From Candidatus Saccharimonadota bacterium (lineage in GTDB: Bacteria; Bacteroidota; Bacteroidia; Cytophagales; Amoebophilaceae): a stretch of DNA of 32,000 bases. Within the stretch, counting starts at the first letter, position 1, and each line of letters opens with the position of its first letter. Of the stretch, positions 1 through 18,951 are shown piece by piece. Both the position numbers and the translations under genes were made by a program. The notes under the pieces were generated by a model that was not told where the DNA came from, did no database searches, and saw nothing but the letters and a program-made list of their open reading frames with translations. The stretch is from contig NZ_OW441264.1 of the NCBI RefSeq assembly GCF_936981045.1, positions 270,001 to 302,000 on the forward strand. The letters run 5' to 3'.

Positions 1-2835
1 TTAGAAACTATTAATCAATATAGTTTAACCAATATAGCTGGAATAGCTAATCAGGAAGGTGTGGCAGTAAGTCAACTATGCGATAGCTTAGCTATAGATA
101 GTAAACCTTTACACGAACAATTATCATTACAATCTATTGATAATCCAGATATAGCAGTAGTAGATACCAACCTAGCCTATATAATTTATACTTCAGGAAC
201 TACTGGTAAGCCTAAAGGAGTGATGGTGGAACATAAAGGGGTCGTGAATTTAAGATATGATTTAACAGATAGGTATCAGCTTGGCCATACAGATAATAAT
301 GAAGCCATTTTACAATTTGCTGATTATGTGTTTGACGCTTCAGTAGAGCAAATGGTATTGCCTCTATTAGGTGGTTACCTATTGGTACTTATTCCAAACC
401 AGTTATGGTTAGATAAACAACAGTTTTATAATTATCTAATTACCCATAAAGTTACCCATATGGATGCTACACCTACCTTTTTAGAGCAATGCAATTTTAG
501 TCAAGTTGCAAGTTTAAAGAGATTGGTATGTGGAGGAGACTTGCTCAGTCAAGATCGCTACAACAAAATAAGGCTAGCAGTACGTGATGATCTCACCATA
601 ATAAATGAATATGGACCTACGGAAGCATCTATAACTTCTATAGTTAATGTTATCCAAAATGATACTCTAATAACGATAGGGGTGCCTATTTCCAACATGA
701 GGTGTTATGTAGTAGATAGTAACTTAACCCTCTTACCTATAGGTGCCATAGGAGAACTATACATAGGAGGTATAGGTCCAACTAGAGGTTATTTCAATAG
801 ACCAGATCTTACCGCCGAGCGATTTATGGCCAATCCCTTCCAAACTGAAGACGAAAGAAGATCAGGAAAAAACGCAAGGTTATATAAAACAGGAGATTTA
901 GTTAGATGGTTACCTGATGGTAATTTGGAATATATAGGAAGGAATGATTTTCAAGTTAAGATTAGAGGTTATCGTGTTGAACTAGGAGAGATTGAAGCTG
1001 CTTTATCTAGTTATCCAGCTATTAAACAAAGTGTGGTACTAGCTAGAGAGCATAAGGACAAGGCAGAGGGTGGAGTTGGTTATAAATATCTAGTGGGTTA
1101 TTATGTAGCAGAGACTAGATTAGATGAAGGAGCAATACTTAATTATCTGCAATCTAAATTACCAGACTATATGGTACCTGCTCTATTAGTACACTTAGAT
1201 CAGCTACCCCTTACCATTAATGGTAAATTGGATAGAAAAGCTTTACCAGAGCCTGAATTTACCAATCAAGATAGTTATGTAGCGCCAAGGAATGAGCTAG
1301 AAAGAAAGGTATGCCAGATATGGGCAGAGGTATTGGGATTAGCCGCAGATAAAGTGGGCATAGAAGATGATTTCTTTAGGTTAGGAGGAGATAGTATTGT
1401 CAGTATTCAGTTGGTAAGTAGGTTGCGACAAAAATTAGGATTACAGATTAGTGTTAAAGATATCTTTAGCTATAAAAGCATTGCTAGTCTTTATGATCAT
1501 GTTTTAAGCAAAGTGCAGGATAAAGCACTACCACTTATACAAGCCGAACAGGGTATATTAAGTGGTAAAGTCGACTTACTACCAGTACAGCAATGGTTCC
1601 TTGAACATGATTTTTCTAATCCTCATTATTGGAACCAATCATTTTTAATTAAGACGCCAAAATTAGAGCTGGATCAATTAGAAAAGAGTCTAGTTAAATT
1701 GATTCAATATCATGATAGTTTTAGATTAAAATATAGCAAGTCAGGTGATGGGAGTTACTATCAATATTATGATGCGCAGGCTATACCAGCATCATTAAAA
1801 ATATTAGATATTCAGACATTAGGATTGCAAGAAGTCAGTCAACCATTTGAAAACAAACTACAAGAAGTATACACTGCTTGGCAAAGTAACTTTAACTTAA
1901 CAGAGGGCCCACTCTATAGCATTGGTTATCTATATGGTTATAAGGATGGCAGTGCTAGAATCTATTTTGCCCTTCATCACTTAATGGTAGATAGCGTAAG
2001 TTGGCGCATATTAGCTGAAGACTTAAGAAATATTTACTATGGTAAAGATTTAGGTAGTAAAGGCAGTAGCTACCGCCAATGGGTAAAGACAGTGCAAGCA
2101 TATGCTATTAATCATCAAGAGGAAGAAGCTTACTGGAATGCTATCTTAGTGGATTATGATGGGGATCAATTCAATAAATTAATAGTTAGTGAAACTACTG
2201 CTAACCAGGCCAGTATACAACTAAGTCCAGAACAAACTACTCAGTTGTTACAGGAAAGTAACCAAGCCTATCATACCCAAATCAATGATCTATTGTTGAC
2301 AGCCCTTGCTTACAGTTTGGCTAGAGTTACAAGCAATAAGGTTAATCACATAGTGTTAGAAGGCCATGGTCGGGAAGAAATTGATAGTAGTATTGATGTA
2401 ACTAGAACATTAGGTTGGTTTACTACTATTTATCCAGTTCGGTTAACGGTAAGGGAGAGATTGGATGATAGCATTAAACATATTAAAGAAAGTTTAAGGG
2501 AAATACCTAATAAGGGAATAGGTTATGGTCCATTAATAGGTTATCAAGATGATGTCTTACCAAGGATAAGCTTTAACTATTTAGGACAGTTTGGTAGTGG
2601 TCAAGTTCAGAATGATTGGCAGATAGTAGGAGAGGGTAGTGGTGTACAAATAGATGCTACTAACCAAGACCATCATATCCTGAACATTAATGGCTTAGTG
2701 GTAGATGGAAGGTTGACCTTTACTATACTAAGCAAACTGGATAAACAAGCTACTGATCAATTAGCGAATAGTTTTAAGAAACACTTAGCAGCTATCATTG
2801 ACCATACTGCAAGTCAAAGCAGAAGCTATTTAACG
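1..2835 (+). other. NRPS module n (partial): A (from before core A3) - T - E
   Basis: A cores A3-A10 lie in 180-1250. The T domain is ~1282-1510 with a GGDSI motif, the variant typical of carrier domains that feed an E domain. The E domain is ~1540-2835 (LLPVQQWF, HHLMVDSVSWRIL). Domain borders are approximate (+/-30 bp). Confidence 0.85.
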
Positions 2836-18700: not shown

Positions 18701-18951
18701 TCCTTGTTATAAGAGAAAATGACATTATCGATTTAATGAGAAATAAACATTTTGATATTATTATTAATATACCTAATCTAGAAAAGCTAGAGATGTATGG
18801 CTGTGCCATTCGTCAAGAGGCATTTATAAGAAAAACTTTGTATTTGGATTCACTTAGAAGTGTAAATACGTTTTTCAACGTTGAATTAACTAAACCCTAT
18901 AAAGTGAAAAGTCTACAAGATTATTATAACGCAAGTTTGGGATTTATTTGA
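15745..18951 (+). CDS. carB: Carbamoyl-phosphate synthase large subunit; native C-terminus replaced by a MITE insertion
   Basis: 1068 aa with duplicated ATP-grasp halves ([24 protein letters not shown] and [56 protein letters not shown]). The last 7 codons plus the TGA (18928-18951) are encoded by the left end of the MITE. Confidence 0.93.
   Translation: [1068 protein letters not shown]

Follow-up and report, generated by a model that had tools for sequence, protein, structure and literature searches.

A candidate self-supplying carbamoylation unit, with a CarAB that has lost effector-site residues, beside a nonribosomal peptide synthetase in a Cardinium endosymbiont

The window analysed in this study is a 32-kb stretch of DNA from the endosymbiotic Cardinium that inhabits the spider Oedothorax gibbosus (cOegib). 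On its + strand, open reading frame (ORF) calls and profile searches revealed, in this order, the 3' part of a nonribosomal peptide synthetase (NRPS) gene, an insertion sequence (IS) of the IS256 family, a carbamoyltransferase (CT) gene, carA and carB. We consider it quite likely that the CT and the carbamoyl-phosphate synthase CarAB are coupled as a self-supplying carbamoylation unit. The full model, in which this unit was acquired horizontally and makes a carbamoylated NRPS peptide with D-residues, is assigned a probability of roughly 60%. The enzyme families and the NRPS were already known; what appears new here is a cluster-embedded CarAB without effector sites that is paired with a TobZ-type transferase, of which no description was found. 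An initial annotation of the same DNA had proposed a self-supplying carbamoyl-peptide cluster. Its coupling of CT and CarAB is well supported by the intact enzymes and recurrent neighbourhoods described below, whereas its peptide acceptor follows from gene position only, and the NRPS and CT genes are at present split by the IS.

Layout of the block and its carbamoylation enzymes

The NRPS reading frame (ORF 61..11472, + strand, also recognized by Pfam) is open to base 1. It is followed on the same strand by the CT gene (12851-14569, 572 aa), by carA (14598-15761, 387 aa), which encodes the small subunit (glutamine amidotransferase) of carbamoyl-phosphate synthase, and by carB (15745-18951, 1068 aa), which encodes the large subunit. 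CT and carA are separated by 28 bp (14570-14597), and carB begins within carA, with 17 bp (15745-15761) shared by the two. Once the IS and one copy of its target-site duplication are deleted, the distance from the NRPS stop to the ATG of CT is 14 + 23 = 37 bp. The four-gene, same-strand block of the initial annotation was therefore reproduced to the base in its positions and in all three spacings, and the identities given to its genes were upheld by Pfam and NCBIfam searches. No terminator-like site was found on the + strand between 11000 and 20200, and Rfam and tRNA scans detected no RNA gene within the block. The number of sigma-70 promoter-like sites was below that of shuffled sequence (33 vs 42.7), which is uninformative on transcription starts.

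The CT is of the TobZ/NovN/GdmN (CmcH/NodU) type, in which the N domain is Kae1-like and the C domain YrdC-like. Both domains of the family are present, as Carbam_trans_N (PF02543, 9e-62) covers residues 7-346 and Carbam_trans_C (PF16861, 5.3e-69) residues 398-572, and homology extends over the whole protein in alignments with NovN (9s2t, 8.9e-92, residues 10-572), GdmN (9e-90) and TobZ (7e-72). The motifs of the metal and nucleotide sites are conserved, as PHHICHA, DGIGE, SNDAG, GPRALGNRS, KKRESFRPFAP and LNTSFN, which include catalytic residues, align with those of NovN and GdmN. These end-to-end alignments with conserved motifs bear out the carbamoyltransferase of the initial annotation as a full-length NovN/GdmN/TobZ-type enzyme. 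The protein is not a NodU equivalog (NCBIfam NF041651), as it gave a partial match of 151.7 bits against a cutoff of 1000.

Both subunits of the synthase retain their catalytic residues. CarA scored 439.9 bits with TIGR01368 (cutoff 307), and its triad Cys269-His353-Glu355 is conserved together with five other checked residues (8/8), as in a genuine small subunit with its CPSase_sm_chain and class-I amidotransferase domains. CarB scored 1439 bits with PRK05294 (cutoff 599) over residues 1-1060 and keeps 19/19 checked catalytic residues of a two-ATP-grasp large subunit. In comparison with its closest relatives, the catalytic part of CarB has a dN/dS of 0.11-0.16, with synonymous sites near saturation. 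The intact residues agree with the annotated function, and CarAB should make carbamoyl phosphate.

The CarB clade, its effector sites and its gene neighbourhoods

Only five close relatives of cOegib CarB were found among the matches listed, with 77, 73, 69, 60 and 59% identity, all of them on low-GC (28-33%) contigs from SRA assemblies. The clade has at least seven members, i.e., six full-length sequences including that of cOegib and a fragment (P0364). The other CarB matches, at approximately 55% identity, are ordinary gammaproteobacterial CarBs, and no other Cardinium or Amoebophilus CarB was present among the best 120 matches. In a neighbor-joining tree of the catalytic part, the six clade members are monophyletic, with a very short stem (0.003).

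The clade stands apart in the C-terminal 'allosteric' domain, which in cOegib is strongly diverged (18550-18951, + strand). A Pfam match to the MGS domain (PF02142) is absent from 6/6 full-length clade members, whereas nearly every other full-length CarB listed has one, and the phmmer alignment of cOegib CarB to 1BXR fades beyond residue 968. The six clade members were aligned with E. coli CarB (locus L007) and 113 ordinary CarBs to compare the effector sites. S948, T974, G976, T977, K993, N1015 and T1016 are invariant in 113/113 ordinary CarBs, and T1042 is found in 112/113. In contrast, S948 (by W, L, F or I), T974, T977, T1016 and T1042 are replaced in all six clade members and G976 in five of them; N1015 is kept in 4/6, and K993 differs between alignments, with a gap in one and K in 2/6 in another. 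Compared with the E. coli enzyme, cOegib CarB has replaced S948, K954, T974, G976, T977, T1016, T1017 and T1042, and an E. coli-type MGS allosteric domain with UMP/IMP and ornithine sites is not present. In E. coli CarB, the S948F change makes the enzyme insensitive to UMP and IMP, the UMP effect requires T977 and K993, and T1042 binds ornithine (PMC6245113). With its effector-site residues replaced, CarAB should therefore run free of pyrimidine and arginine feedback, and we infer from the residues that it is insensitive to UMP, IMP and ornithine.

The C-terminal domain is under relaxed selection, with a dN/dS of 0.19-0.45, which remains below 1, and the motifs FDIIINIP and VKSLQ are common to the clade. 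Neutral decay of the domain was considered and rejected on these two grounds. The extreme tail of cOegib CarB has been rewritten by a MITE (miniature inverted-repeat transposable element), at a position past the last conserved residues. When the C-terminal domain alone was searched against 1.84 billion representatives, no ordinary CarB was retrieved, and P0364 was the only further clade fragment. Four other matches were of non-CarB length and mostly consisted of several short stretches; one of them (P0361) is a leucine-rich repeat protein.

The initial annotation had described the supply enzyme as wired to a tailoring enzyme, and this agrees with the observation that the CarAB lineage recurs beside carbamoyl-phosphate consumers. 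A carbamoyl-phosphate user adjoins carAB in all three lineages with upstream sequence; the contigs of L005, L006 and L174 begin at carA, and their upstream regions are not visible. At L008 and L009 (CarB 60%), the order CT-carA-carB is found on one strand as in cOegib. Because the CT of these loci shares no more than 29% identity with that of Cardinium, their gene order indicates that the pairing of consumer and CarAB was assembled more than once, or that the CT was swapped. L008 shows that the conserved functional pair is the consumer plus CarAB, with a variable scaffold pathway. In the closest relative, L004 (CarB 77%), carAB lies head to head with a gene set comprising a DegT aminotransferase, a NUDIX/DUF4743 protein, an isochorismatase, HypE-like and HypF-like proteins and an EamA exporter; carAB and this set together occupy 2230-8319 (- strand) and 8854-13171 (+ strand). 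In this non-hydrogenase setting, the genes may form a small-molecule pathway that involves a carbamoyl or cyano group. At L005 (CarB 73%), carAB is followed after approximately 600 bp by an NRPS, and at L006 by an ABC exporter. The 17-bp overlap of carA and carB is common to cOegib, L004 and L005.

For background, we used 161 loci with a CarB-like sequence (2.2 Mb in total; 88 of at least 15 kb), obtained as a by-product of two scans of contig collections. A CT-family gene was found in the flanks of one of these 161 loci (L013, itself an NRPS cluster) and of none of the approximately 160 ordinary carB loci. A neighbouring CT is therefore not something that carB loci have by chance. L013 comes from an acidobacterial metagenome-assembled genome (MAG; Pyrinomonadaceae, DATDMC010000094.1, 1-16436), in which a CT gene (7459-9207) overlaps the gene of a 540-aa CarB-half paralogue (9152-10774). 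The genes are ordered as NRPS (condensation (C), adenylation (A), thiolation (T) and thioesterase (TE) domains, C-A-T-TE), ABC transporter, MacB/FtsX permease, CT and CarB-half, radical SAM protein, methyltransferase, radical SAM protein, MbtH and type II thioesterase. The half-size CarB is a stand-alone homologue of the C-terminal half of CarB that retains the MGS domain; such a protein beside a CT is unusual in itself. Judging from this gene order, L013 is an independent parallel, i.e., an NRPS cluster with its own gene of the carbamoyl-phosphate synthase (CPS) type adjoining a CT.

According to published analyses, de novo nucleotide synthesis is missing from every Cardinium, cOegib among them, and amino-acid pathways are few. 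In Table S4 of Halter 2023 (PMC9997750), pyrimidine modules are listed only from UMP onward, and no arginine or urea-cycle module is listed for any of the four symbionts. That CarAB may be dispensable for primary metabolism is suggested by these pathway summaries and by the lack of Cardinium homologues among the matches. CarAB was more likely acquired horizontally than retained, given that the homologues included no other Cardinium CarB and that the ordinary CarBs closest to it, at approximately 55% identity, come from Gammaproteobacteria. The suggestion in the initial annotation that CarAB had been retained mainly for this product was thus not borne out, and retention from a free-living ancestor was rejected on the same evidence, as neither Amoebophilus nor another Cardinium provided a homologue among the best 120 matches.

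The NRPS, the mobile elements and rival explanations

Pfam detected four Condensation, three AMP-binding, three PP-binding and one Thioesterase stretches in the NRPS tail. By motif mapping, the domain order, with E for epimerization domains, is A(partial)-T-E, C-A-T-E and C-A-T-TE, corresponding to the last three of seven modules. The domain coordinates given next are approximate, lie on the + strand and were derived from Pfam and core motifs. Module 5 contains A5 (1-1260), T (1303-1503) and E (1558-2880); module 6 contains C (2902-4227), A6 (4288-5850), T (5920-6138) and E (6178-7500); and module 7 contains C (7513-8880), A7 (8893-10455), T (10513-10725) and TE (10783-11460). The core motifs TSGTTGKPK, N.YGPTE and LGGDSI are present; the C domains carry HHIILDG/HHAILDG, and the TE has GWSLG. 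With ordered C-A-T modules, core motifs, E domains and a terminal TE, the protein is a modular type I NRPS. Both E domains carry PVQQWF, HHL[MI]VD[SA]VSW, EGHGRE, RTLGWFT and FNYLGQ. Because these domains are intact, epimerization is plausible, and D-residues in the product, as predicted by the initial annotation, remain a plausible feature.

The specificity codes of the A domains, extracted by our own alignment to GrsA-PheA, are DAEDVGEITK (module 5), DAFFLGAVFK (module 6, aliphatic) and DVSYIAYIYK (module 7, Pro-like). The GrsA-PheA reference gave its canonical code DAWTIAAICK in this alignment. The extracted codes agree with the published antiSMASH prediction of X-Leu-Pro for modules 5-7. 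The module-5 code (aa 1-420, nt 1-1260) places three acidic residues in the pocket, so that its substrate may be cationic, for example Orn, Lys, Dab or Arg; in the published figure, the antiSMASH prediction for this position is X (PMC9997750). It was also observed that the modules are 76-91% identical in nucleotide sequence over kilobases (706-4841 vs 5329-9473; 5329-6020 vs 9922-10613; 676-1397 vs 9892-10613), and that the C-terminal subdomain of the A domain, the T domain and the start of the next domain are near-identical between modules. This suggests recent duplication or gene conversion.

The initial annotation recognized no named cluster with this architecture. The NRPS itself has already been published, without carbamoylation, by Halter 2023 (PMC9997750; also Fig. 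S2), as a protein of seven modules with an E domain in all but the last and a terminal TE. The antiSMASH product given in the same study is Thr-Asn-Thr-X-X-Leu-Pro ('TNTXXLP'), with Thr at positions 1 and 3. The word 'carbamoyl' is absent from its text and from the available supplements, and the paper names only 'helper proteins'. The NRPS closest to the Cardinium tail, with 70% identity over half of the query, is found at L093 in a Rickettsiaceae MAG (JARBCD010000098.1, 13516-23500). After it come two SecA_DEAD-domain proteins of very large size (2160 aa and more than 1556 aa), and the NRPS itself has a weak OTU-domain match.

In the proposed mechanism, the seven-module NRPS, whose last three modules lie in the window, would build a short peptide to be released by the TE. 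CarA and CarB would supply carbamoyl phosphate, using glutamine, bicarbonate and 2 ATP, the YrdC-like domain of CT would convert carbamoyl phosphate and ATP to carbamoyl-AMP, and the Kae1-like domain would transfer the carbamoyl group (+43 Da) to an acceptor hydroxyl. The acceptor would most likely be the NRPS peptide with its predicted Thr at positions 1 and 3. CarAB would not be a housekeeping enzyme but a portable supply cassette for carbamoyl-phosphate users, in a host reported to be without the usual carbamoyl-phosphate pathways.

Two mobile elements touch the block. An intact IS of the IS256 family (11487-12819, + strand) lies within the former 37-bp spacer between NRPS and CT, flanked by perfect 8-bp copies of the target-site duplication GGTTTAAG at 11479-11486 and 12820-12827. 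It has imperfect 26-bp terminal inverted repeats, GGGTCTTTTGTTTTAAGTGTGTAAAT and, reverse-complemented, GGATCTGTCCAATTAAGTGTGTAAAT, and encodes a transposase of 406 aa (11558-12778, + strand; Transposase_mut PF00872, 9.8e-110). The Mutator-type transposase, the imperfect repeats and a target duplication in the range of 8-9 bp are those of the IS256 family. The window contains further copies with about 90% identity. At the downstream edge of the block, a MITE-like element of approximately 247 bp (18927-19173), whose terminal inverted repeats are 17 bp long (AACGTGAGTTCGGGATT ... AATCCCGAACTCACGTT), reaches into carB over its last 25 nt and supplies its final codons and present stop. Without it, the carB ORF would probably be about 16 codons longer. 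The element is probably MITECca01 of Halter et al. 2022 (PMC9769881). According to the same study, about 300 copies of IS and 169 MITEs (~470) are spread over the 1.14 Mb of the cOegib genome, i.e., one per ~2.4 kb. About seven insertions would be expected in a random 17.5 kb, and the block holds only two, one in the 37-bp spacer and one in the last 25 nt of carB, with approximately 17.5 kb of coding sequence uninterrupted. This pattern fits selection for function; it also fits a very recent arrival.

To the right of carB, the window is a graveyard of mobile elements. Four more IS256-family copies (20012-21129; 21186-22486, - strand; 29264-30768; 30759-31643, - strand) are 88-99% identical to one another or to the intact IS; one has an internal deletion (transposase of 242 aa) and overlaps the 3' end of an elbB-like ORF, and one is broken by a MITE. 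Further MITE-like copies are found at 30104-30352 and at 23764-23878 plus 25158-25297, one copy being split by an IS5-family insertion. The elbB-like ORF, a DJ-1/PfpI-family gene (19352-20035, + strand; ElbB equivalog 263.6 bits vs cutoff 180), lies between the MITE and an IS copy. A murF-alr fusion (26056-28536, - strand; PRK11930, 993.6 bits) and tRNA-Lys(UUU) (28726-28799, - strand) are probably native Cardinium genes that mark the end of the accessory region.

The NRPS peptide is proposed as the carbamoyl acceptor from its position, i.e., from the operon-like spacing and the parallels at L005 and L013, and several points weigh against this part of the model. Among the homologues retrieved with the last NRPS module, none was an orthologous NRPS accompanied by CT-carAB; identity to the best NRPS relatives is 50-70% and extends over part of the query, and neither CT nor carAB is present in the one neighbourhood inspected (L093). 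The nearest CT homologues, many of them from Patescibacteria, are just 60-67% identical, and in four contexts of the closest ones a TrmB-type regulator or an SHMT-like ORF adjoins the CT, with no carAB or NRPS. These non-NRPS contexts are the main weakness of the claim, and the strong conservation of CT across phyla hints at a common, non-peptide substrate. At L008, a PLP-dependent decarboxylase lies upstream of the CT, and no NRPS is present in the visible 2.4 kb. The initial annotation had named orthologous CT-carAB triplets lacking an NRPS in relatives as evidence against itself; L008 goes part of the way, being a triplet with a non-orthologous CT and a visible upstream region of just 2.4 kb. 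Moreover, the absence of pyrB, argF and arcB from cOegib rests on published pathway summaries. Finally, with an IS between NRPS and CT and a 3' end of carB rewritten by a MITE, present-day co-transcription and expression can only be presumed.

Several of these points would be explained if CT and CarAB were a self-contained carbamoylation cassette that acted not on the NRPS peptide but, for example, on a glycan of the envelope, a nucleoside or a small molecule from the host, and the NRPS were adjacent owing to a shared IS-rich accessory region. This explanation, which we regard as serious but unlikely, would suit the contexts of the closest CT relatives, including the cell-wall genes near one of them (L002), the L008 triplet, the carAB of L004 beside non-NRPS small-molecule genes and the density of mobile elements in the region. 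It fits poorly with the operon-like 37-bp same-strand spacing that preceded the IS, with the clade carAB accompanied by an NRPS at L005, and with the CT and CarB paralogue inside the NRPS cluster of L013. In addition, ORF and profile searches revealed no other candidate pathway for a carbamoyl acceptor in the 32-kb window.

It is improbable that the block is a recent island under inactivation, in which the IS is polar on CT and carAB, the C-terminus of CarB has been changed by the MITE and the carbamoylated product is no longer formed. The intact IS between NRPS and CT with its perfect target duplication, the MITE at the end of carB, a genome that consists of about 30% transposable elements with many recent pseudogenes (published), and the failure to find the Bacteroidota-type promoter motif TAnnTTTG upstream of CT would fit such a process. 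However, none of the four ORFs is truncated and their motifs are intact, both insertions spare conserved coding sequence, and no terminator-like site lies 3' of the transposase gene, so that read-through is possible. Least credible of all is that carAB is an ordinary pyrimidine/arginine operon whose position beside CT and NRPS is coincidental. The NCBIfam equivalog scores of CarA and CarB and their intact catalytic residues would be expected of such an operon, but the effector-site residues are lost, no other Cardinium CarB is among the homologues, and de novo nucleotide synthesis is reported to be absent from Cardinium, with few amino-acid pathways. The relatives in the clade also lie beside CT, HypF or NRPS genes, and a CT neighbour is essentially never seen at ordinary carB loci.

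Significance and comparison with known systems

Beyond the unit itself, a wider and more tentative picture, to which we give slightly less than even odds, is that of a mobile CarAB clade in low-GC, probably host-restricted bacteria that has been freed of UMP/IMP/ornithine control and supplies YrdC/Kae1-superfamily enzymes (TobZ-type transferases and HypF-like proteins) of specialised-metabolite pathways; in cOegib, which would otherwise be devoid of carbamoyl-phosphate metabolism, the resulting carbamoylated D-rich heptapeptide would act on the spider or on its co-symbionts (Wolbachia, Tisiphia and Rhabdochlamydia). Carbamoyl phosphate is usually seen as a housekeeping intermediate that tailoring enzymes borrow. 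The cOegib locus and its relatives suggest that recruitment can extend to the supply enzyme, which loses its feedback control and travels with its consumer. A heavily reduced reproductive parasite would be investing approximately 19 kb of DNA and at least 3 ATP per carbamoyl group in one small molecule; such investment points to a function directed at the host or at competitors, in a spider with as many as five endosymbionts. The model predicts a heptapeptide with D-residues and an increment of 43.006 Da. For genome mining, carAB beside a CT, a HypF-like gene or an NRPS should be counted as part of the cluster and not as its boundary, and for engineering, the clade is a natural candidate for a feedback-insensitive CarAB in the production of carbamoylated compounds.

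The closest known systems are the cluster-embedded O-carbamoyltransferases TobZ, NovN, GdmN, Asm21 and CmcH, together with Alb15 of the albicidin polyketide synthase-NRPS cluster, which belong to the same two-domain family as the cOegib CT (E 1e-72 to 1e-92). As in the TobZ/NovN/GdmN-type clusters, carbamoyl-AMP chemistry is expected and the tailoring gene lies beside an assembly line; unlike in those clusters, a complete carAB follows the CT in cOegib. To our knowledge, known O-carbamoyltransferase clusters draw on housekeeping carbamoyl phosphate and carry no carAB. Likewise, a review of carbamoyl phosphate (PMC6022934) lists no carAB in such clusters, and our literature searches found no described cluster-embedded CarAB, which is weak negative evidence. 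Cyanide-ligand synthesis by HypF and HypE offers a further comparison, as HypF is in the same YrdC/Kae1 superfamily, forms carbamoyl-AMP and consumes carbamoyl phosphate. The genes of this system are not in the cOegib window, and its relevance is that of a second kind of consumer linked to the CarAB clade (L004).

With E. coli-type CarAB (PDB 1BXR/1JDB), the cOegib enzyme shares its subunits, domain order, approximately 55% identity and the amidotransferase triad, but its context is secondary metabolism and not pyr/arg genes. Synthases dedicated to a single pathway exist in Bacillus, where an arginine-specific CarAB is found besides the pyrimidine-specific PyrAA/PyrAB. These enzymes and the cOegib CarAB share the idea of a carbamoyl-phosphate synthase that is dedicated to one pathway and encoded in its operon. 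Those of Bacillus, however, serve primary metabolism and are regulated by end products, whereas the partner of cOegib CarAB is a TobZ-type transferase and its effector sites are gone.

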